From positions 75,206,001 to 75,270,000 of the forward strand of contig NC_135814.1 of assembly GCF_964213995.1 (NCBI RefSeq): a stretch of 64,000 nt of DNA, in the 5' to 3' direction. Shown here piece after piece: positions 11,990-55,937 of this stretch; the stretch's first letter is position 1, and every line of letters begins with the position of its first letter. This DNA is from Mustelus asterias (lineage: Eukaryota). The position numbers and the translations under genes are program-made. The notes under the pieces were generated by a model. The model had not been told where the DNA came from and searched no databases. It saw only the letters and a program-made list of their open reading frames with translations.

Positions 11990-12890
11990 ATAAGACCAAG
12001 GACCATAGGAGCAGAATTAGGCCACTCGGCCCATCAAGTCTGCTCCGCCATTCAAATCATGGCTGATATTTTTTTCATCTCCATTCTCCTGCCATTTTCC
12101 CATAACCCCGGATCCCCTTACTATTCAAGAACCTATTTATCTCAGTCTTAGAGACACTCAATGACCTGCCCTCCACAGCCTTCTGCGGCAAAGAGTTCCA
12201 AAGATTCACCATTCTCTGGCTGAAGAAATTCCTCCTCATCTGTTTTAAAGGATCATCCCTTTAGCCCGAGGTTGTGCCCTCTGGTTCTAGTTTTTCCTAC
12301 CAGTGGAAACATCCTCTCCAGTCCACTCTATCCAGGCGTCACAGTATCCAGTAAATTTCAATAAGATCCCCCCTCATCCTTCTAAACTCCAATGAGTACA
12401 GACCCAGAGACCTCAACTGTTCCTCATACGACAAGCTCTTCATTTCAGGAATCATTCTTGTGAACCTCCTTTGGATCCCTTCCGAGGCCAGCACATCCTT
12501 CCTTAGATATGGGGCCCAAAACTGCTCACAATACTCCAAATGGGGTCTGACCAGAGTCTTATACAGCCTCAGAAGTACATCCCTGCTCTTGTAATTCTAG
12601 CCCTCTCGACATGAATGCTAACATTGTATTTGCCTTCCTAACTGCCAATTGAACCTGCACATGAACCTTAAGAGAATCTTGAACAAGGACTCCCAAGTCC
12701 CTTTGTGTTTCTGATTTCCTAAGCATTTTCCCATTCAGAAAATAGTCTATGCTTCCATTCCTCCTTCCAAAGTGCATAACCTCACACTTTTCCACATTGT
12801 ATTCCATCTGCCACTTCTTTGCCCACTCTCCTAACCTGTCCAGGTCCTTCTGCAGCCCCCCTGCTTCCTCAATACTACCCGTCCCTCACC
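11990..12890 (-). mobile_element. 5'-truncated CR1 LINE
   Basis: MEYNVEKCEVMHFGR and LGLYSLEFRRMRGDLIE motifs; same subfamily as 39680-41005. Confidence 0.9.
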
Positions 12891-15800
12891 CTGGTTTATG
12901 CGTTTAAAAGCTCTGGAAGTGGGATTTGAATCTATAATCTCCTGTTTCTGCTGTTAATTTCTGAGCCAAGCCTGACAATAATAGATGCTTGGTTTTCAAT
13001 TAACTGTACAGAATGATTCCACAGATAAAAATAGGTACTTAATATATGGCTTTAAAATAGGGACTGAATTACATTTGTGTGCCAGTTCAACATCCCCACT
13101 TTACCTCTCAAGTACAATTGATCAGGTCAACCTGTACACATTACATGAGTGTGATCAGTGTATTTAAAAATTATAACCATCCAATTAATATTGTAGTAAG
13201 ACACTAATGTTACTGATTTGGTCAGCCTTGCATGACAAACTGAAACAAGTTTTCATTGGGCAGCCCTTTTATTCTCTACATTTTATTTTGTGTCTTTTTC
13301 CCTTCCATGAAGTTGGGTCCCAATCTGCTCAGCCAGTATTTTTAATCTTATCTGAATCTTCCCTTCTAATTGTCACACACCATTCAGATCAACCTGCTTA
13401 GATGCTCCCTTTCCCAAGATCTGATAATGCATTCCTCAGCTCCATGCTCCACTCACCAACCCAAACTGTGCACGGCCATACAAATTTTACTCATGTAGTA
13501 CTCAAGGATGACATGTTGACCGTAGGTATTTAGTAGTCGAAGGTGGAAAGGATTTTTCTCATTTGGGGGTGCAATCCACCTTTCTCTTAAAAATTCCCAT
13601 CACAGGATATATGTAGAGGTAAAGAAACTAAAGTAAATTTTCCCCTCATGATCATCAATATGGACCGGATTAGTTAATGAAATTAAAATTTTATGAAATT
13701 ACAATTTTTACTTTTCTATTTGTTTCCATACATACAGCTAATTACACCCACATTCTTAATTAAGGCTTATTTTTAAGTAGGTCTAATTTTACAGTAAGTC
13801 TATAATACAGCATAAATGACAAGTTAAAGACAATGGATTTTAACCCACAATAACAGTGAGAAATATTTAACCAAAATACCACAATTCCAGTAACCGCAAA
13901 ACAAAAACTACTTCTTTCATGCAGAGATCAACAAAATAATTCTGTCCATGTATAAAATGGATTGCATTCTTTTCTTTTGCCTCTACAGTTAAAATATTTC
14001 CTGCACCAATGCAGTTTTGTATTTATAGTCATAACACAACCAACATTCACTGAAATTGACAAAAGTTATTTGCAAATGTAAAGTATTCAGTATTCCATCC
14101 ACTACCTGATGATGCATAACCAACAATGACAATTTTTCTTCACTATACAACTAACCAGGGGCTTCCTGTTAACCCGATTGTATATTCTGCACTAGTGGAC
14201 AGAAGTAACAGTCCTGAAATTTCCTACCCAAAATGCAGCATTTATAAGGAAACAAGACTCCGTTTAAAAACTGGGTTCAAATCTAAATTTTTGATGAGAA
14301 CTCTGACAATTTTACCACTTTACAAAATGAATTAGATACACCTGAAAAATTAATTTACTGGGTTTTTCTCAACATTCTCATGACTCCCAACAATTGGATT
14401 ATCTCAGTTTGAAATTATATAGTACAGGACAACCACATAAAAAGCACAAGAATGATCCAATTGAAAATGGCATAGGTAGAGCCCCTCCCCCTACAATAGT
14501 TCAGTAAGGAATGCACCGTATACTCAGTCATTTTCACCAATTTCGATCTCCATTAAAATGGTGGTGATAAAATGCTACCATTGGTCTTAATATTCCAACC
14601 AAATGGGATGAAAAAAAGCCAGGATTCTCATTCTTGGTCAAATTGTATAGACATGTGCACCCATAAATCACAATCGTGCTGTCCTCCAATTTCACCCAGT
14701 TTTACATAAAAATAAAAAGCTACTTGAGCAAAACAGTCTCAGTCATGAGGGGCTTTGCAGTCCTATATGAGGATGATTAAAAGTTAAGAATGAAAAAAAA
14801 CAGGAAGCAATTAGTTTTTGCCCATCTAGAATAACAGAGGAACTGACATGAGAAAGTAAAATTGCATTAAACATTGATAAAATCTGCATCGATATTTTTC
14901 AAAAAATGTTTATTCCCATATTCTCAACAAAAACCTCTACAATACTTGTTCCAATAAAAAAGCACCAGGAGGCACCAATACAGAGAGATGCATTTATTAA
15001 AACACCAAGTTCACCTGCACTAAATTACTTGAATGAAACAGAAGATACAAGCCTGCTAGTTGTGGATATCATGTGAACCTGACCACATAACTAACGAGTG
15101 ACGAGTTAATCATGTTGGCTGGATTCGCAAGTTATTAAATTCAGACTGCAATCAAATCTTAATATGCCAGAGTGGGATCATAACTTTAATCCTGAAGTTC
15201 ATAGTGTGGTAGCTTTATGCTACTAGATATAACCAAAGGATTTATAAATATTACACGATAGAGAATGTAAAGTATTTACAACATAAGCTAGAGCAATTTA
15301 ATGGCAGTGAAACAGTATCCCTTGAGGAATTAGCCAACACTTAATGTCACTGCTAACTAGTTATGAAAAATGCAGATAATCTTAAAATACCTGGACCAAA
15401 ATATATCAAACATGTTTTTAACCTTCATGGAGCTTTTTATAATTGGTAACCATTTGTTTTTCTACTTACTTTTTAACTCCATGGGCCAGGAACCACAGTG
15501 TAAGTCTCCTATTGTTCATTAACAGTGACATAGTTTTCACAGAAGGCTTATCACACGACTAGGACACTAACATTCCACTGGGATAAATAGCCATTTTCAA
15601 GCTTGCAGTGACACAGATTTCAGAAATTGATTAGTTCACTTATGGTTTTCAACCTGTCAATTTGATTGCAGATGGTTTAATTCAGAGTAGGGGTCACTAT
15701 TTGTCCTGATTAGGACAGTTCTTGCACAAGTAATAATCTTACATATTTTCTCACAAGTTAACTCTGAAGACCTTTGTCACAACTGTAGAAAAAGTTGTGC

Positions 15801-15983
15801 AAAGTGAACCATTATATTTTAGCAAAAGTAGAAAAGATGCATTTGGTCATGTAAAGAAAGTGGGGAAATGAAACTGCCATACAAAAATTAATGTGATCTT
15901 TGTTTGAAAATCAGCTGATTTGAAACTTATGAAAAAAACCTCAAAAATAACTTGAGAAATATAAACTGGACTCAGACTTTTTG

Positions 15984-15989
15984 TTTATT
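15984..15989 (-). promoter_or_regulatory. likely proximal poly(A) signal AATAAA of SF3B1
   Basis: AATAAA about 345 nt after the stop, preceded by ATTCCTTGTGTTAAGGG, which resembles the recalled end of the mammalian SF3B1 3' UTR. Confidence 0.6.
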
Positions 15990-16333
15990 TTTTTGTTAGA
16001 AACAACCCCTTAACACAAGGAATTTAACTTAAATCTCAATAAAGACATTCAAATGAATTGTAAATTGAGTATTCACCATCCTGTTGGTCACTATAAGATT
16101 TAGTTACTTAACATCAAGAACAAGTAATGAGACAAGAAGGCTTATGTCCCATTTGAAATAAAATTGTGCTACTAGCCCTATCCACTTACTACTTTACAAT
16201 CTTCTCCAACAAGATGATAATGTTTGTATTCAAACTCTCATCACATCACATCCAAAGCACAGCATAAGATTGGGCAATAATAATGCAGCAAATAGCAGAC
16301 AACAAAGACTATGCAGTGAATGTTAACCCCGTT

Positions 16334-16492
16334 TTATAAGATGTAGTCAAGTTCATAACGGACATGTGTATTCTTTTCATCATTGAAGATCCTTGGATAA
16401 TGTGCAATTAGGGCATCCTGCGAGCCAATGTAGATGGAGTTGTAAATCTTCCAGTACACATCACGCACTTTTCTAGCTGGATGAAACAAGCC
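16334..16492 (-). CDS. SF3B1: SF3B1 exon 25 coding part (159 nt, includes TAA)
   Basis: [52 protein letters not shown]. Confidence 0.96.
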
Positions 16493-17171
16493 CTATTAGG
16501 AAAGAAGGAAAATATTATAACTGTTCTGATTGACCAATAGGGATATCAGTACTGGGAAAACATGTTTAAACACAAACATTTTTTGCAGTTATAATTTTGA
16601 GATTTCGAAGAGAATTATATTTTGGGGCTGCAGCTTTAAATTTAGGGTAAATGAAGGGGTCATGTGACCTATTCTGAAATCTGCCTGACAATAAATCTGT
16701 GTAGTTTGATTGTTAGAGATCCAAGGAATGCTCAGATTGTTTTACTGAAAAGGTGCAAGGTATTTATGCTTGGAGACATTGGCAGAAGTCTTTGAGTTTC
16801 CCATAGACTCTTTCTGGAAGTCCCCAGAAAGATGTTGTTGTTATCGGGTTTTAAATAGTCATACTTGCAGTCATCCATTTACTTCTAAAGATGAAAGGAG
16901 TTGGGATCGAAGATAGCTAATCAGCATTTCTGCCTTGATGCAAGGTTTCATGTTGCCATGGGGAGGAAGGCAAAGGAATCCACTTTTGAGATCAGGTTAC
17001 AGACTTCCATACAAATCAATGAATATCACAGACAGCAAAGGTTCTGTGTGGTCATTAGAGAGAGGAGACTCCTTAGCTTTGTGGGATACCACAGTTGGAT
17101 GCAGGAGGGGGGAGAAAGTCTCCAGTCAAAAAGACACATCCTGCGATCTTTTACGGATTCTGAGAGATTTG

Positions 17172-17477
17172 TTCTGGCATGGCTGGGGGAAGAATCACAG
17201 TAAGAAGTCTCACAACACCAGGTTAAAGTCCAACAGGTTTATTTGGTAGCAAAAGCCACCAGCTTTCAGAGCGCTGCCCCTTCATCAGGTGAGTGGGAGT
17301 TCTATTCACAAACAGGGCATATAAAGACACAAACTCAATTTATAAAATAATGGTTGGAATGCGGGTCTTTACAGGTAATCAAGTCTTAAAAGGTACAGAC
17401 AATGTGAGTGGAGAGAGCGTTAAGCACAGCATCTCCACATCATGACTACCATTGACACCGCAGCATCTCCACATCAG
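17172..17477 (-). mobile_element. Penelope-like element terminal-repeat fragment with degenerate hammerhead
   Basis: taagaagtctcacaacacca... shared with 20430 and 29640; minus strand CTGATGA...GAAAGCTG at 17292-17257. Confidence 0.75.
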
Positions 17478-46288: not shown

Positions 46289-49108
46289 CTAAACCAATTT
46301 CTTTTCGTCCATGAACCTATCTACGGATCTCTTAAACGCCCCCAAACTAGGCGCATTTACTACTGATGCTGGCAGGGCATTCCAATCCCTCACCACCCTC
46401 TGGGTAAAGAACCTACCCCTGACATCGGTTCTATAACTACCCCCCCTCAATTTAAAGCCATGCCCCCTTGTGCTGGATTTCTCCATCAGAGGAAAAAGGC
46501 TATCACTATCCACCCTATCTAAACCTCTAATCATCTTATATGTTTCAATAAGATCCCCTCTTAGCCGCCGCCTTTCCAGCGAAAACAATCCCAAATCCCT
46601 CAGCCTCTCCTCATAGGATCTCCCCTCCATACCAGGCAACATCCTGGTAAACCTCCTCTGCACCCTCTCCAAAGCCTCCACATCCTTCCTGTAATGTGGG
46701 GACCAGAACTGCACACAGTACTCCAAGTGCGGCCGCACCAGAGTTGTGTACAGTTGCAACATAACGCTACGACTCCTAAATTCAATCCCCCTACCAATAA
46801 ACGCCAAGACACCATATGCCTTCTTAACAACCTTATCTACTTGATTCCCAACTTTCAGGGATCTATGCACACATACACCTAGATCCCTCTGCTCCTCCAC
46901 ACTATTCAAAGTCCTCCCGTTAGCCCTATACTCAACACATCTGTTATTCCTACCAAAGTGAATTACCTCACACTTCTCCGCATTAAACTCCATCCGCCAC
47001 CTCTCGGCCCAACTTTGCAACCTGTCTAAGTCTTCCTGCAAACTACGACACCCTTCCTCACTGTCTACCACACCACCGACTTTGGTGTCATCAGCAAATT
47101 TGCTAATCCACCCAACTATACCATCATCCAGATCATTAATAAATATTACAAACAGCAGTGGCCCCAAAACAGATCCCTGAGGTACACCACTTGTAACCGC
47201 ACTCCATGATGAATATTTACTATCAACCACCACCCTCTGTTTCCTATCCGCTAGCCAATTCCTGATCCAATTTCCTAGATCACCCCCAATCCCATACATC
47301 TGCATTTTCTGCAGAAGCCTACCATGGTGAACCTTATCAAACGCCTTACTAAAATCCATATATACCACGTCCACTGCCTTGCCCCCATCCACCTCATTGG
47401 TCACTTTCTCAAAAAACTCAATAAGGTTAGTAAGGCACGACCTACCTGCCACAAAACCATGCTGACTATCACCTATCAATTCATTACTCTCCAAATAACT
47501 ATAAATCCTATCCCTTATAATTTTTTCCAACATCTTGCCGACAACAGAAGTGAGACTCACCGGTCTATAATTCCCGGGGAAGTCTCTGTTCCCCTTCTTA
47601 AACAATGGGACAACATTCGCTAACCTCCAATCTTCTGGTACTATACCAGAGGCCAACGACGACCTGAAGATCAGAGCCAGAGGCTCTGCAATCACTTCTC
47701 TTGCCTCCCAGAGAATCCTTGGATAAATCCCATCCGGACCAGGGGATTTATCTATTTTCAGACCCTCCAGAATATCCTGCACATCCTCCTTATCAACTGT
47801 AATACTGTCTATTCTACTCCCTTGCAACCCAGTGTCCTCCTCAGCTATATTCATGTCCCCTTGCGTGAACACCGAAGAGAAATATTGGTTCAATGCTTCA
47901 CCAATCTCCTCCGGTTCCACACATAACTTCCCTCTGCCATCTATAACTGGCCCTAAACTTGCCCTAACCAACCTTCTGTTCTTGACATACCTATAGAACG
48001 CCTTAGGATTCTCTTTAACCCTATCCGCCAAAGTCTTCTCATGTCCTCTTTTAGCCCTTCTAAGCTCGCTCTTCAACTCCCTCTTAGCCAATCTAAAGCT
48101 TTCTAGTGCACTACCCGAGTGCTCACGTCTCATCCGAACATAAGCCTCCTTTTTCTTTTTAACCAACAAAGAAACTTTTTTGGTGCACCACGGTTCCCTA
48201 GCCCTACCAATTCCTCCTTGCCTGACAGGGACATACCTATCACAGACTCGCAGTAGCTGCTCCTTGAAAAAACTCCACATGTCGGACGTTCCCAGTCCCT
48301 GTAATCTCCTAGTCCAACCTATGTTTCCTAATTCTCTCCTAATAGCCTCATAATTACCCTTCCCCCAGCTAAAACCACTGGCCCGAGGTTCATGCCTATC
48401 CCTTTCCATCACTAAGGTGAACGTAACCGAATTGTGGTCACTATCACCAAAATGCACACCAACTTCCAAGTCTAGCACCTGGTCTGGCTCATTTCCCAGC
48501 ACCAGATCCAATGTAGCCTCACCTCTAGTTGGCCTGTCTACATACTGAGTCAAAAAACCTTCCTGCACGCTTTGAACAAAAACTGACCCCTCTAACGAGC
48601 TAGAGCTATAACAATTCCAGTCAATATTAGTCAAGTTAAAATCCCCCATAACAATTGCCCTATTACTTTCACTCCTAAGCAGGATTGACTCCGCAATCCT
48701 TTCCTCAACCTCTCTAGAACTTTTAGGAGGTCTATAAAAGACTCCCAACAGGGTGACCTCTCCTCTCCTATTTCTAATCTCCGCCCATACTACCTCAACA
48801 GATAAGTCCTCATCAAACCTCCTCTCTGACACTGTGATACAATCTCTGACCAATAATGCTACCCCTCCCCCTCTTCTACCTCCTTCCCTACTTCGACTAA
48901 AACATTTGAACCCCGGGACCTGCAGCATCCATTCCTGCCCCTGCTCTATCCATGTCTCTGAAATAGCCACAACATCGAAGTCCCAGGTACTGATCCACGC
49001 TGCAAGTTCACCCACTTTATTGCGAATACTCCTGGCATTGAAGTATACACATTTCAAACCCTGCTCCACCCCACCTCTGCAATGCCGTGCATTGCAGTCC
49101 CCATCCAT
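46289..49108 (-). CDS. CR1 ORF2 (APE endonuclease plus reverse transcriptase), 939 aa
   Basis: YFNARS, ISETW, MGDFN, SDH (endonuclease); GVPQGSVLGP, FADD (RT); no stop codons. Confidence 0.95.
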   Translation of the reverse strand: MDGDCNARHCRGGVEQGLKCVYFNARSIRNKVGELAAWISTWDFDVVAISETWIEQGQEWMLQVPGFKCFSRSREGGRRGGGVALLVRDCITVSERRFDEDLSVEVVWAEIRNRRGEVTLLGVFYRPPKSSREVEERIAESILLRSESNRAIVMGDFNLTNIDWNCYSSSSLEGSVFVQSVQEGFLTQYVDRPTRGEATLDLVLGNEPDQVLDLEVGVHFGDSDHNSVTFTLVMERDRHEPRASGFSWGKGNYEAIRRELGNIGWTRRLQGLGTSDMWSFFKEQLLRVCDRYVPVRQGGIGRAREPWCTKKVSLLVKKKKEAYVRMRREHSGSALESFRLAKRELKSELRRAKRGHEKTLADRVKENPKAFYRYVKNRRLVRASLGPVIDGRGKLCVEPEEIGEALNQYFSSVFTQGDMNIAEEDTGLQGSRIDSITVDKEDVQDILEGLKIDKSPGPDGIYPRILWEAREVIAEPLALIFRSSLASGIVPEDWRLANVVPLFKKGNRDFPGNYRPVSLTSVVGKMLEKIIRDRIYSYLESNELIGDSQHGFVAGRSCLTNLIEFFEKVTNEVDGGKAVDVVYMDFSKAFDKVHHGRLLQKMQMYGIGGDLGNWIRNWLADRKQRVVVDSKYSSWSAVTSGVPQGSVLGPLLFVIFINDLDDGIVGWISKFADDTKVGGVVDSEEGCRSLQEDLDRLQSWAERWRMEFNAEKCEVIHFGRNNRCVEYRANGRTLNSVEEQRDLGVCVHRSLKVGNQVDKVVKKAYGVLAFIGRGIEFRSRSVMLQLYTTLVRPHLEYCVQFWSPHYRKDVEALERVQRRFTRMLPGMEGRSYEERLRDLGLFSLERRRLRGDLIETYKMIRGLDRVDSDSLFPLMEKSSTRGHGFKLRGGSYRTDVRGRFFTQRVVRDWNALPASVVNAPSLGAFKRSVDRFMDEKKLV

Positions 49109-49159
49109 GCATCCCTCACTTTCAGCCCCACTACTCAGGATCCCTCCCCCCCCCCCGAA

Positions 49160-50089
49160 TCAGTTTAAACCTCCCTGCATGGCCTTAGCAAATTTACCCC
49201 CCAGGATATTGGTCCCCTTCTGATTAAGGTGTAGACCATCCTTCTCATAGAGGTCACACCTTCCCCAGTACGAGCCCCAATTGCTTAAGTACCTGAACCC
49301 CTCCCTCCTGCACCATCCCCTCAGCCATGAATTCAAACCTTCCCTCTCCCTATTCCTCTCTAAACTATCCCGTGGTACAGGCAAGAGTCCAGAGATAACC
49401 ACTCTGTCAGTCTTGGCCTTTAGTTTCCACCCCAACTCCATAAATCCCTGCCTAATATCCCCTTCCCCTATCCTCCCTATGTCGTGTGTCCCCACATGTA
49501 CAATAACTTGTGGTTTATCTCCCTCCCCCCTAAGAATCCTGAATACCCTGTCAGACACATCCCGGACCCCAGCCCCTGGTAGGCAACACACCAACCCTGA
49601 GTCCCTACCTTTAGTTCCGACCCTCCTATCTGTCCCCTTAATTGTGGAGTCCCCAATCACAAGGCCCAGTCTTTTACAGCCCCTAACCACCTGAGCTTTC
49701 TCACTCGGCTCACCCCCAGAGATCTGCTCTCTATGCTCAGTTGATTCCTCCTCAACTGTAGCCTCCAGCACCGAAAACCTATTATGGAGGGGAACCGCCC
49801 CAGGGGATTGTCTTCCCGATTGCTTCTTACCCCTCCTCCTGGCATTGACCCAAGCCTCATTTCTAGGAGTTACTATTTCTCTATAACTCCTATCAACTTC
49901 CACCTCCGCCTCCCGAATTATGCGGAGTTCCTCTACCTCCCCCTCCAGCTCCTTTACACGCTCCTCCAGAAGCTGCAATCTAATGCACTTCTTACAACTA
50001 AAATCTCCTGAAACACTACTGGATTTCCTCACCACATACATCCCACAGGAGATGCAGCATACTGCCTGAACTGCCATCCCTGAAGCCAT
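49160..50089 (-). CDS. CR1 ORF1 (zinc-binding motif, coiled coil, SGNH esterase-like domain), 309 aa from first ATG
   Basis: CxxC...CxxC; LEERVKELEGEVEEL; LVIGDS, HVGTHD and DGLH esterase motifs. Confidence 0.9.
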   Translation of the reverse strand: MASGMAVQAVCCISCGMYVVRKSSSVSGDFSCKKCIRLQLLEERVKELEGEVEELRIIREAEVEVDRSYREIVTPRNEAWVNARRRGKKQSGRQSPGAVPLHNRFSVLEATVEEESTEHREQISGGEPSEKAQVVRGCKRLGLVIGDSTIKGTDRRVGTKGRDSGLVCCLPGAGVRDVSDRVFRILRGEGDKPQVIVHVGTHDIGRIGEGDIRQGFMELGWKLKAKTDRVVISGLLPVPRDSLERNREREGLNSWLRGWCRREGFRYLSNWGSYWGRCDLYEKDGLHLNQKGTNILGGKFAKAMQGGLN

Positions 50090-50190
50090 TACCAGCAAGA
50101 AAAAAAGAAAACAAAAAAAAAAAAGAAGGCACTGGAAATAATCAGCAGATATGACAGCAACTGTGGGAAAAGAAATAGACTTAACATTTC

Positions 50191-52384
50191 TTTACAGTGA
50201 GCCTAACGTCAGTAGTGGGTAAGTTGTTAGAAGGTATTCTAAGAGACAGGAGCTACAGGCATCTAGAGAGGCAAAGACTGATTAGGGACAGTCAGCATAG
50301 CTTTGTGAGCGAAAGATCATGTTTCACAAATTTGATTGAATTTTTTGAAGGGGTAACCAAGGGGCCAATTCCCCCAAAAGTGCTGAATTGGTGAGAAAAC
50401 TGGTCTAGATCACAACTCTTTTTTCAGTGCAACTTCAGACCCGAATCTCCACACTCTGTGCAATGCAGAGGTCCTAATCGTGAATATCATTAAAAATGCA
50501 GGGGGGGGATGGGGCCTATTCACGTCAGAGGCTGATAGCTCTGGAACTCTGCGCACGCGCAGTGGCCCCGATCTGTCGGTCTCCCCATGTGTTGGCCAGC
50601 TCTAACGCTGGCCAGCCCAGGACCCCCACGGTGCTGCCCCTCCTGACACACCACGGTCCGATCGTGGCCCCCATGACAATTCTCGGGTCAGCCCCAACCC
50701 ACAATGCTCTCCCCCCCCAGCCTTGGAGTGCCATGATCTCCAGGACCTCTCCCCCCTTGGGCAGTGCCGGGGGCACAGGCTGGCACTGCCAGGGTGCCCA
50801 TGCCCTCGCCCCCGCCGCCCGACCCCCTGGGGGGGGGCCCGATTGCCCCCCCTTTCGTTCCAATGGGGTCTCCTGCTAGTTCCCCGAATGTGGGAGCTAC
50901 TCTAAACCCCGGAGTGAAATACTCCTGGTGGGGTGGGAGATGTTATCGGGCCCAGCAAGTTGCAGACCGGGCCCAATAATGGCATTTAAAATAGATTAAA
51001 AATACATTTAAAACAATTAAAATCACTTACCTCTCTTCTCGCCGGTTTCCAGCACGGTCCCAACTGTGCCTGTTCTCTGGCTCTGGGAGACGTGCATGCG
51101 TCGGGAATGCATGCGCAAATCCTGCGAAATGGCCGACATGCGCATCTCTAGACGTGACCTACCAGAAGATTTGCCGCCTCCTCCTCCCCCCCCCCCGGAG
51201 GTAGATGAGGGCAGTGCAGTCGACGTTGTCTACATGGACTTTAGCAAGGCCCATGACAAGGTACTGCATGGTAGGTTGTTGCATAAGGTTAAATCTCACG
51301 GGATCCAGGGTGAGGTAGCCAACTGGATACAAAATTGGCTTGACGACAGAAGGCAGAGGGTGGTTGTAGAGGGTTCCTTTTCAAACTGGAGATCTGTGAC
51401 CAGCGGTATGCCTCAGAGATCGGTGCTGGGTCCACTGTTACTTGCCATTTATATTAATGATTTGGATTTGAATTTAGGAGGAATGTTTAGCAATTCTGCA
51501 GATGATACCAAGATTGGTGACATAGTGGACATTGAAGAAGGTATCTAGGATTGCAAAAGGATCTTGATCAATTGGGCCAGTCAGTGGGCTAATGAATGGC
51601 AGATGGAGTTTTATTTAGACAAATGGAGCCGATGCATTTTGGTAGATCAAACCAGGGCAGGACTTACCCAGTTAATGGTGGGGCACTGGGGAAAGTTACA
51701 CAAAGAGATCAAGGGGTGTGGGTTAATAGCTCCTTAAAAGTGGAGTCTCAGGTGGACAGAGTGGTGAAGAAGGCAATCGGCTTGATTGGTTTCATTGGTC
51801 AGAACATTGAATACAGGAGTTGGGACGTCTTGTTGAAGTTGTACTAGATTGGTACGGCCACACTTGGAATAATACGTACAGTTCTGGCCACTCTATTATA
51901 GAAAGGATATTATTAAACTAGAAAGAGTGCAGAAAGGGTTTACTAGGGTGCTACTGGGATTTGATGGTTTGAAGTATAAGGAGAGGCTGGATAGACTGGG
52001 ACTTTTTCCCTGGAGCGTAGAAGATTTAGGGGTGATCTTATAGAGGTCTAGAAAATGAGGAGCATAGATAAGGTAGATAGTCAACATCTTTTCCTGACGG
52101 TAGGGGAGTCTAAAACTAGAGGGCATAGGTTTAAGGTGAGAGGGGAGAGATACAAAAGGGTCGAGAGGGGCAATTGTTCATACAGAGGGTTGAGTGTGTC
52201 TGGAACGAGCTGCCAGAGGTAGATAGGTACAATTTTGTCTTTTAAAAAGCATTTAGATAATTACATGGGTAAGATTGATATAGAGGGATATGGACTAAAC
52301 GCGAGCAATTGGGACTAACTTAACTGGACGGCATGGACAAATTGGGCTGAAGAGCCTGTTTCCGTGTTGTAAATCTCGATGACT
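50191..52384 (+). mobile_element. 5'-truncated CR1 with a GC-rich element (50362-51197) inserted
   Basis: ATTTC duplication at 50186-50190 and 52385-52389; RT sequence GTAACCAAG|...|GAGGTAGATGAG is split by the insert. Confidence 0.85.
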
Positions 52385-52837: not shown

Positions 52838-52917
52838 CTCTTCCTTTGTTAAATGCTGTTCTCGCATTACATCCATGTAGGTTCTGGCATGGACCTTAGG
52901 ATCTGGTGTCTTTCCAC
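52838..52917 (-). CDS. SF3B1: SF3B1 exon 5 (80 nt)
   Basis: cag|GTGGAAAG...GAG|gtaatg; [27 protein letters not shown]. Confidence 0.95.
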
Positions 52918-53277
52918 CTGAGGGACAAAAATAGTGAGAATAGACCAGAAAAAAATTAGTGCAAATATAAGAAAAAAGACAACTTTATTTTATCTAGTTA
53001 CAATATTTTTGCATTAACAGTCTACATTTATTTTGGTTCAACTTTAAGTTTAAAATTGCTGACTTCTCAATTTTATATTTGTTCAAATCACAGCAACTTA
53101 CAGAGAAGCAACCCTGATGGTCAATTTAGCCTGCTTGAATACAAACAGTAATAATTACAACAATCTAAAAATAAATGCCTTAAGTGCAGTTATAAGCAAA
53201 TCATACGCAAGACATCAAAACACATTTAAGTGTCCATTATTGTTGGTTTTCCTTCGGTGATGTTCCGGAATACGTAC

Positions 53278-53333
53278 ACTGGCGGGCCTGTGTGTCCATC
53301 AGCAGTTCTGACTTCAAGCAGCAGAACAGAAGC
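53278..53333 (-). other. SF3B1: conserved poison / alternative terminal exon C in SF3B1 intron 4 (56 nt)
   Basis: tttctag|GCTTCTGTTCTGCTGCTTGA gives ...DPFAD-GFCSAA*, matching the recalled human short isoform end GFYSAA*; donor AGT|gtacgt; AATAAA downstream at 53032-53027. Confidence 0.8.
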
Positions 53334-53655
53334 CTAGAAAATTATCTCTTTACCATTAGTAACACTTTGGAAAGGGTTTTAAAATTCAAAACATCACACC
53401 TTGTGTTAGTTTTTAAAATCTCACTCAATATGTGTACTAACAAACTTCTTAGGAGAAAACAAGTTTTACCTGTTTAATATTAACCATATTAAAAAATAAT
53501 TGTAAATGCAACTATTTAAGCATAAAAAGTTACTTTTCAACAGGATACTTTTATTTGGGATTATGCTGTTTGGGTTTGTCTAAAACATGCTACACTGGCA
53601 GTGTCATACTGCCATTTTCATTGGACTTCCTTTTGGTTTACTTTTTCAGCATAAC

Positions 53656-53717
53656 CTACACACGATCTGTTGCACTGCACCCTTAAGAATGCAGACAGGA
53701 CTGTCATAGCAGTACTG
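53656..53717 (-). other. SF3B1: candidate poison cassette exon B in SF3B1 intron 4 (about 62 nt)
   Basis: TACTAAC (53747-53741), then pyrimidine tract and ctacag|cag tandem acceptor; reads AVLL* or VLL* after exon 4; donor TAG|gttatg is tentative. Confidence 0.5.
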
Positions 53718-54495
53718 CTGTAGGAAAGAAATTAAGGACAGTTAGTATGGGCCCGTGGAATTCCGGCAAACATATTTAGAGCAATTACAGTTACAAAAAT
53801 GTCAGTTTCTATCCGTGATAAAACATATATACTGTAGGTCTGATATCTCTTTCAATTAAACCTGCATGACTAGTTAAACTGAAAATGTACTACATCGAGC
53901 AAAAATTCCTATGTCACTGATAAATGTAAACTCAACCACCTGAAAAAAAACAAAACTTCCATCTGGCCCACTATGCCTCCCAGCAACAACCACATGCCTA
54001 GTAGCTAACTAACTACAATTAGAATTGTTTCTAAAAGGCCACTCCAAATTAATTCAGAGGATGGCAAGCTCCAACTTAGATTTGTGATAAAAACAGGAGC
54101 TTATGGAAATCTGTCTTTATCACAGAACTTGGAACAGCCAAATTCTCCTCTTTCCAAACATTTCCCTCTCTCCCGATTTCTTATGGAAACGCAAACTCTT
54201 GGAAAAATGGTTCCACAGGCATGACCTGTTGTACCACACTTGGGTGGCTATTTATCTGCACATGCGATTGATACGGAGGAAGGATAGGTGGGAGGTTGCT
54301 CAAAAGTCCACCCTGTTATCGTCCAATATTCACATATCTCACTTTTAGTGAGGCCAGTGAATAATGGCAGGAATAATGACCAACTTCTCCATTTTCTCTA
54401 TTGCAGGAGCACTGAGGTCAATGTTAAGAGTCCGACTCTGGCTCTGGCTAACATGGCAAAGATTGGAAATTTATCTAATGATCTACATAACTTAC

Positions 54496-54604
54496 TTTGT
54501 AGATCACTGGGGAAGTGTTCTTTTCATCAAGAGAATATCACTCAGAAGCAATGGATTCACATACTTCAAAAAGTCCTGCAACAATCCATGCTTAGCAACA
54601 TTTT
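54496..54604 (-). other. SF3B1: candidate poison cassette exon A in SF3B1 intron 4 (109 nt)
   Basis: ttttctctag|AAAATG...CTACAAA|gtaagt; spliced to exon 4 it reads ENVAKHGLLQDFLKYVNPLLLSDILLMKRTLPQ* (TGA at 54506-54504). Confidence 0.55.
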
Positions 54605-55822
54605 CTAGAGAAAACAGTGCCGCTTAAAATAAACAGAAGCCCAATCATTTTAGTTAACTATAAAGGAGAAATTAAAATTGAATAATTTGTCCATAAGAGA
54701 CACATTTTGCAACTTTCAATTTAATAGTTTGTATTAAATTGTAATTTTTAAAATTGAAGTCACTCAGTCAGCGACTGCAGAGTGAATGTGCATCAATGTG
54801 CAACTTGTACAGCAGTGCATCAATTGAAAACTTCTTGAAAAATTCAATCTAGTTAATTTAAGATTGCTTTTTAACTGATAAGTTTTCAAACATACCTATG
54901 CACAATTAATTATTTTATGTATGAATTAGCAGTAACTTGTGCTGCATTATTCAATATGTGCAAAATAACTTTTTTGATAGCAATAAACCTAAAGCAGTTT
55001 TTCAACTGCAGAATAATCACAAATTTGAGTTTTTAATATATGCAGTTGGATTTGAGGTAACTGTTCAGAATGATTGGCTACATATAGTTCTCAAATAATT
55101 AAACTGAAAACCTAATTAAAAGATGCTACAAGATCATGTCCATCTAAATGCAATACAAGAACCTGCCTGAAATTGGCCCCATCTGTCCGGGTAGACCAAA
55201 TGAATAGGGCAATTTAACGTTTTCCACTTGCAAGGTGTTCTGTGGGAGATGGTTTGTTTGGTGGGCCAGCAAACCTCTGTATACATCTGGAAAGGCCTTT
55301 TGTTTCACTTTTAATCTTTTTGCACATGCACCAAAGCCTTCCTCATAAGACTGGGCTGAAATGACTGTTCTTGTATGGTTTACAAATGCTACGTTCTTCC
55401 AGAAAAAAAACTATCACTATTCCCCATGAGCAATCTTTCATTCCATAAAAGAACAAAAATTCAGTCAAGAAGTCTCATTTAAAACAGAAGAATGTCTCAC
55501 TAATTTATTGTGGAAGGCAATGGGCATACACTCCTGAACATATTTAAATACTGACTTTTCAATTATATTGTTTCAACCGCCTGATGTGTACACAACAAAA
55601 CACAGGTAAAAGTAACCCTTCACATGTTGCATAACCACATGTATTTGTGCAGACTGATATGCAAGATCTGAAGTGCCTTTAACAAATTAATCTAGCTTTT
55701 AACAGTTCTCAAAATAAGATGCTTTAAATAGTTCAAACTGTGAAATAAGCATAGTAAATAAAGTTCAAGGGCTGAACTGTTATGCACCCTCATCAAAAAG
55801 CAGCACAATCTGAAAAAATTAC

Positions 55823-55937
55823 CATCTGCAAATGGGTCATGGCGTTCAGGGGAAATAATCATCTGTCTCCTACGTGCTTTATACTCATCTTCCCGTTCCA
55901 CAATCCGCTGCGGTCGGTGTTCAGCAAATGGATCATA
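55823..55937 (-). CDS. SF3B1: SF3B1 exon 4 (115 nt)
   Basis: cag|TATGAT...GATG|gtaatt; YDPFAEHRP...[13 protein letters not shown]; ends in phase 1. Confidence 0.95.

Follow-up and report, generated by a model that had tools for sequence, protein, structure and literature searches.

Predicted counterparts of the human decoy exons E4d and E4e in intron 4 of a shark SF3B1 gene

Does intron 4 of SF3B1 in a shark hold non-productive exons that lower the output of productive mRNA, as described for the human gene, and which of its exon-like units belong to such a system? We analyzed a stretch of 64,000 nucleotides from Mustelus asterias (G000:C14:75206001-75270000; genome 3.68 Gb), in the following called the window. 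It carries SF3B1 on the minus strand, and all features of the gene described below lie on that strand. Exons 2–25 (24 exons) join into a single open frame with its sole stop at the end, and exon 1 (28 coding nt) is located in the next stretch, outside the window. Introns 16 (32456-28078) and 24 (18498-16493) start with GC, the frame being open across both, which makes two GC–AG introns within one gene.

Exon 4 (55823..55937, 115 nt, phase 1 at its end; 97% identity to the Heptranchias protein P0016) and exon 5 (52838..52917, 80 nt) flank intron 4 (52918..55822). This intron measures 2,905 nt and is bounded by GT..AG, in agreement with the original prediction, which had assigned the gene to SF3B1 and given the intron a length of 2.9 kb. 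It lies between exons 4 and 5, the location expected of the decoy exons, and at more than 1 kb, with internal non-coding cassettes and intact splice sites, it has the layout of a decoy-retained intron. Three exon-like units, here called A, B, and C, had been proposed within it; all three are indeed preceded by AG, followed by GT, and terminate the reading frame of exon 4, with 20 further exon junctions downstream of the unit stops, so that the stops qualify as premature. The count of three was probably too low, as a probable counterpart of the human decoy E4c (53997-53940) and a possible one of E4f (53130-53102) had been overlooked.

The intron had also been described as free of transposons, unlike the other large introns of the gene. 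When compared with a 600-kb sample of stretches from the same genome, a reference smaller than a full repeat library, 0 of its 2,905 nt were matched, whereas all ten other complete SF3B1 introns above 1 kb are covered by repeat matches to 14–78%, which bears out the earlier description. Intron 4 is therefore the only one without repeat matches among 11 introns of this size. Of random 2,905-nt windows, 6 of 180 (∼3% per window) were likewise without matches; the repeat-free state is unusual but not extreme, and less striking once picked from eleven introns. A DNA search of the species' own genome with intron 4, of a kind that skips common words, returned the intron itself alone. Rfam gave 0 matches across the window, so no known snoRNA accounts for the constraint on intron 4. 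We infer that transposons are missing here because selection acts on the decoy architecture. Internal repeats of 53376-55822 were considered as well, and these short two-copy matches were judged to be chance. Elsewhere in the window, a LINE-type retrotransposon is located in intron 6 (retrotransposon at 46292-50191, minus strand), with open frames of 343 and 956 codons from stop to stop, and the second-longest stretch without within-window repeat matches (12888-17195, 4.3 kb) contains the last exon and probably also covers a long 3′ UTR.

Human SF3B1 intron 4 is described as extremely conserved and contains six cryptic exons, E4a–E4f, of 29–56 nt, of which E4d and E4e are kept as far as fish (Parra 2018, PMC6097662). 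Under a block of NMD, junction reads were found for all six decoys, and about one-third of the exon-4 junctions led to E4b or E4e, E4b being one of the two most used human decoys (PMC6097662). The decoy acceptors carry U2AF cross-links (Parra 2018, 2020). Deleting the decoys abolished retention of intron 4, and E4e alone brought retention back (PMC6097662); a morpholino on the E4e donor reduced retention from ∼26% to 3% (Parra 2020, PMC7373989). In human cells, the main outcome is intron retention via decoys, with poison inclusion second (PMC6097662, PMC7373989), and retention occurs in K562 and only little in HEK cells (PMC6097662). A further study of the gene (Bergot 2020, PMC7139785) has intron 12, not intron 4, as its subject.

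Unit C (53278..53333) has the same length as human E4e (56 nt) and agrees with it in 50 of 56 letters by eye (Fig. S1 of PMC6097662); it encodes GFCSAA before its stop. All shark–human identities given here were counted by eye from the machine-read text of that figure, pieced together in reverse, a reading that gains support from the occurrence of the E4b peptide GRRTRK in isoforms of sauropsids and from the agreement with the lengths in the Table. Over 14 nt, the unit C donor (53264..53277) is the same as the intronic part of the E4e sequence targeted by the published morpholino, and no other exact site occurs on the window's sense strand. As had been predicted, the unit is preceded by TACTAAT, with the branch A at −23, and by a weak, purine-rich tract (6 of 16 pyrimidines). 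Judged by its sequence, unit C is the predicted counterpart of the human decoy exon E4e.

The core of unit B (53681..53717) comprises 37 nt, compared with 39 nt in human E4d, and runs into a stop after AVLL. By eye, 36 of 37 letters are like E4d, next to a 2-nt gap that is common to coelacanth and teleosts, and the 10-nt donor motif of E4d has an exact match at 53683. The unit is preceded by a perfect TACTAAC (53741..53747) with the branch A at −25, as originally noted; sampled strands totaling 1.2 Mb contain this word together with a strong acceptor three times. The similarity to E4d predicts that unit B is the counterpart of this decoy, and the statement that outside support is confined to the third unit has to be revised, because unit B is supported too, by the E4d match and by the isoform tails described below.

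Unit B combines its strong acceptor with three weak donors. Beyond the core, an extension (53656..53680) holds two more donor candidates, with exon ends at 53660 and 53656, which gives candidate lengths of 37, 58, or 62 nt. The 3′ end had been placed at 53656; the donor of human E4d corresponds to 53681, and four teleost tails (P0072, P0119, P0122, and P0172) run from B into C, which by frame reading indicates a donor equivalent to 53660. Multiple donors are a feature linked to decoys in the Parra papers. A hairpin is predicted over the 37-nt donor (53671..53697; z −2.42, 7 of 200 shuffles, in a window chosen post hoc); it was non-significant in wider windows (z −0.79 and −0.11), and folding of the whole unit showed nothing unusual. 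By eye, a teleost change in Fig. S1 may turn a U–G pair of this hairpin into C–G.

Two further candidate units would fit the human order. The probable E4c counterpart (53940..53997) is 58 nt long and frame-shifting, in contrast to the 51-nt, in-frame human exon. It contains two short human motifs 14 nt apart, each with a unique exact site in the intron, and is also alike to Fig. S1 by eye. The possible E4f counterpart (53102..53130) has the human length of 29 nt, is bounded by AG..GTAAGT, and gives an immediate stop; its length and place agree with E4f, and the 8-nt word common to both has eight exact sites in the window. The series E4c-like unit, B, C, E4f-like unit, and exon 5, with gaps of 222, 347, 147, and 184 nt, follows the same order as in human. 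None of the isoform tails among the 273 proteins listed (see below) derives from the E4c-like or the E4f-like unit. The start motif of human E4b is absent from intron 4. A segment at ∼55650-55595, at a similar distance from exon 4, faintly resembles the human E4a/E4b region by eye; a 9-nt motif is present at 55640 with 1 mismatch, and the resemblance may be due to chance.

Annotated SF3B1 isoforms are database annotations that rest on RNA alignments. A set of 273 proteins was assembled from two exon-4-frame protein searches (56 of 56 and 120 of 132 matches listed) and from two cluster look-ups, in which each cluster was listed with up to 15 members. Among these 273 proteins listed, 89 continue from exon 4 to exon 5, 60 end in the tail of unit C, 35 begin the tail of unit B after exon 4, 86 have other tails, and 3 lack exon 4. 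The 13 cartilaginous-fish short isoforms among the matches listed, from 11 species, comprise ten with the C tail, three with the B tail, and none with an A tail. As database annotations, these tails reflect inclusion, the poison outcome, and not retention. A coding role of the short isoforms was rejected, as the stop position of unit B differs between sharks, teleosts, and amniotes although the DNA is kept. Four AATAAA words are found in intron 4 (55509, 53555, 53032, and 52989), two of them after unit C; judging from these words, short isoforms could end by intronic polyadenylation.

Among 64 proteins with other tails, 12 short ones join exons 2, 3, and 4 and then read into intron 4 (initially 13, of which one full-length model was dropped), which is what a retained intron would give. 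Fishes, birds, and mammals all have such read-through forms, human isoform 3 being one of them; no named shark is among the 12. Retained introns tend to be left out of gene annotation. In RNA of the species itself, each of four runs (4/4) yielded one 57-nt contig that joins exon 4 to exon 5, and this length would agree with branching toward the unspliced form at either end, which is no more than a weak hint. When mapped to exon 4 and unit A, the contigs of the four runs showed no intron cover, a result that is uninformative because the records were filtered.

Taken together, we consider it likely that intron 4 carries the shark counterparts of the human decoys E4d and E4e, lowering productive SF3B1 mRNA. 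The original idea was that of a constrained intron whose conserved non-productive exons keep SF3B1 output down; it is supported for B and C and finds no support for unit A. In the shark itself, the sequences, their order and spacing, the stops, and the absence of repeats are directly established. The counterpart orthology of B and C with the human decoys would extend the same function to the shark. U2 and U1 snRNPs would recognize B and C, and the units would in turn engage both ends of intron 4 and stall in most cases. The consensus branch point would recruit U2 snRNP, and the weak or competing donors, together with the purine-rich tract of C, may stall the complex. Skipping of the units would then lead to mRNA, inclusion to an NMD substrate, and stalling to the retained intron, three fates that are based on human cells and would be shared by the shark. 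Some transcripts would retain intron 4 or take up a stop exon and be lost, resulting in less productive SF3B1 mRNA. Cell type and trans-acting factors probably determine the set point of the decoys.

The shark intron shares with human E4a–E4f the same gene and intron, C as E4e (56 nt, same donor), B as E4d, and the non-coding, stop-bearing nature of the units; the probable counterparts of E4c and E4f lie at matching places. Differences to human are the greater intron length (2.9 kb compared with 1.8 kb, with extra sequence before E4c), the 37-nt E4d with a stop after four residues, the frame-shifting E4c-like unit, and the lack of a clear E4b. The fish rows of Fig. S1 that we examined (PMC6097662) include no cartilaginous fish. 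Like the retained introns of OGT (intron 4), ARGLU1, DDX39B, and SNRNP70, the intron is large and contains a conserved internal non-coding cassette (PMC6097662); several donors are common in introns of the OGT type, as they are in unit B, and control of decoy-type retained introns by SFSWAP has been reported (PMC12017769). The OGT group differs in genes and sequences, and OGT has a known physiological input, whereas none is established for SF3B1 in the parts of these sources cited here.

SR proteins have autoregulatory poison exons. Similarly, RBM39 contains a conserved, stop-bearing cassette within a splicing-factor gene that is NMD-sensitive on inclusion (PMC10477243); there, the protein drives inclusion of its own exon, whereas for SF3B1 no such test was found in the sources cited here. 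It is conceivable, though unlikely, that the B and C decoys are feedback sensors of this sort, with consensus branch points that respond to free U2 snRNP/SF3b. More SF3B1 would then lead to more retention or poison inclusion, a reading that is compatible with the decoy system proposed above. TACTAAY words precede both B (−25) and C (−23) and none of 24 constitutive acceptors (0/24), and the shorter word CTAAY is found at only 2 of these 24, exon 5 among them. ACUAA words can also be read by QKI and SF1. With its branch word and poor tract (6 of 16 pyrimidines), unit C would lean on U2 pairing, and self-regulation of this type is common in splicing factors, as in RBM39 (PMC10477243). At the exon 5 acceptor itself, the near-consensus word is CACTAAT, with the A at −39 (52956).

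A metagenome scan gave 62 loci, which showed no alignment beyond chance with upper intron 4 (2 matches, E 0.045 and 0.16). We examined the 16 loci with an intron at this position, several of them near duplicates and several incomplete. A C-like unit is present in 2 of these 16 distant loci (L063 and L084, probably invertebrate SF3B1 loci), each with YACTAAT and a weak tract before a short stop exon (57 nt in L063 and 49 nt in L084 by our own count) and with the exact 10-nt donor of C (0 of 300 and 1 of 300 shuffles, respectively), which speaks for sensing of the branch point. Locus L064 matches 9 of 10 donor positions (17 of 300 shuffles), and the full C donor match is absent from 14 of the 16 loci, L064 included and some of them incomplete, which argues against it. 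In L063 (∼1810-1900) and L084 (∼2395-2480), the E4e-like unit is accompanied by a second TACTAAY word further upstream.

Published data on SF3B1 expression further weaken the case for feedback. SF3B1 mRNA in copy-neutral lines is about twice that in copy-loss lines, which speaks against strong buffering, and the authors list absent feedback for this gene class (PMC5357138). In smooth muscle, Sf3b1 retention (intron unnamed) is higher where the protein is lower, from which the authors argue against feedback (PMC5062968), and the dependence of intron-4 retention on cell type (PMC6097662) points in the same direction. No paper on SF3B1 autoregulation was found in a literature largely without subscription papers, and a review, in the part cited here, treats the regulatory input as open (PMC6117862). 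In a broader reading, which we regard as unlikely, the E4e-type decoy would have monitored the supply of U2 snRNP/SF3b since early bilaterians. Its consensus branch point before a deliberately poor tract and a fixed GTACGT donor, an arrangement conserved in sharks, humans, and distant animals, would let SF3B1 hold down its own mRNA, and E4d would be another sensor that responds at a different threshold.

Unit A (54496..54604) stands apart from the decoy system formed by B and C. It ends in a GTAAGT donor and gives a stop after 33 residues; a stronger alternative acceptor for the same donor at 54657 gives a 162-nt form with a stop after VN. The pair 54657-54496 is the top-scoring acceptor–donor pair of intron 4, and at least two acceptors could pair with the one GTAAGT donor. 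We scored splice sites with a crude matrix built from 24 acceptors and 21 donors of SF3B1 itself, which gives unit C only 1.7 and −0.3; because a real unit scores so poorly, splice strength cannot separate real from chance units. With this matrix, the other introns contain 37 AG..GT pairs scoring at least as high as unit A in 32,765 nt, equal to 3.3 per 2,905 nt, and the own-genome sample has 2.2 per 2,905 nt. When a literal GTAAGT is required, the figures are 0.5–0.7.

It seems distinctly unlikely to us that sharks have in unit A, either as drawn or in the 162-nt form, a genuine decoy of their own in place of amniote E4a/E4b. Its GTAAGT donor, the lack of repeat matches in its region, and the score of 11.6 for the donor with acceptor 54657 (∼0.05 per 2,905 nt, 22 in 1.2 Mb, under post hoc thresholds) speak for such a role, against which stand the chance level of the form as drawn and the missing TACTAAY word. 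Peptides of either form are absent from the 273 proteins listed (0/273) and from the 13 cartilaginous-fish short isoforms (0/13), and local blastp of the unit A peptide against the first 224 proteins gave no match. By eye, the unit has no likeness to E4a–E4f, 0 of 7 human motifs land inside it, and folding of its acceptor region showed nothing unusual. It sits in the 1,825 nt that precede the E4c-like unit, where the shark intron exceeds the human length, and probably represents a pseudo-exon formed by chance where the intron expanded in this lineage. Its proposal as a real unit thus finds no backing, and because unit A is unsupported, the originally proposed three-step graded array lacks a step.

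Least likely, and in our view improbable, is that B and C act in sharks mainly as ordinary poison cassettes, with inclusion leading to NMD and little retention: the annotated shark, ray, and chimaera isoforms among the matches listed show inclusion tails only, the unit stops lie upstream of 20 further junctions, and inclusion of E4b or E4e takes about one-third of exon-4 junctions in NMD-blocked human cells (PMC6097662), but the human deletion and morpholino tests measure retention (PMC6097662, PMC7373989), read-through forms are seen in fishes, birds, and mammals, and retained introns are, as said, seldom modeled in annotation.

The human system has already been published, and the shark intron probably adds a member to a known decoy-exon system. 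It would place probable counterparts of E4c and possibly E4f deeper in the vertebrates than the text of the human study, which names reptiles (PMC6097662). Further additions are the three candidate donors of E4d, the possible hairpin, and the contrast in branch-point quality between the units and the constitutive acceptors. If the decoys read out the level of SF3b, they would provide a feedback loop for SF3B1, an often-mutated cancer gene and drug target.
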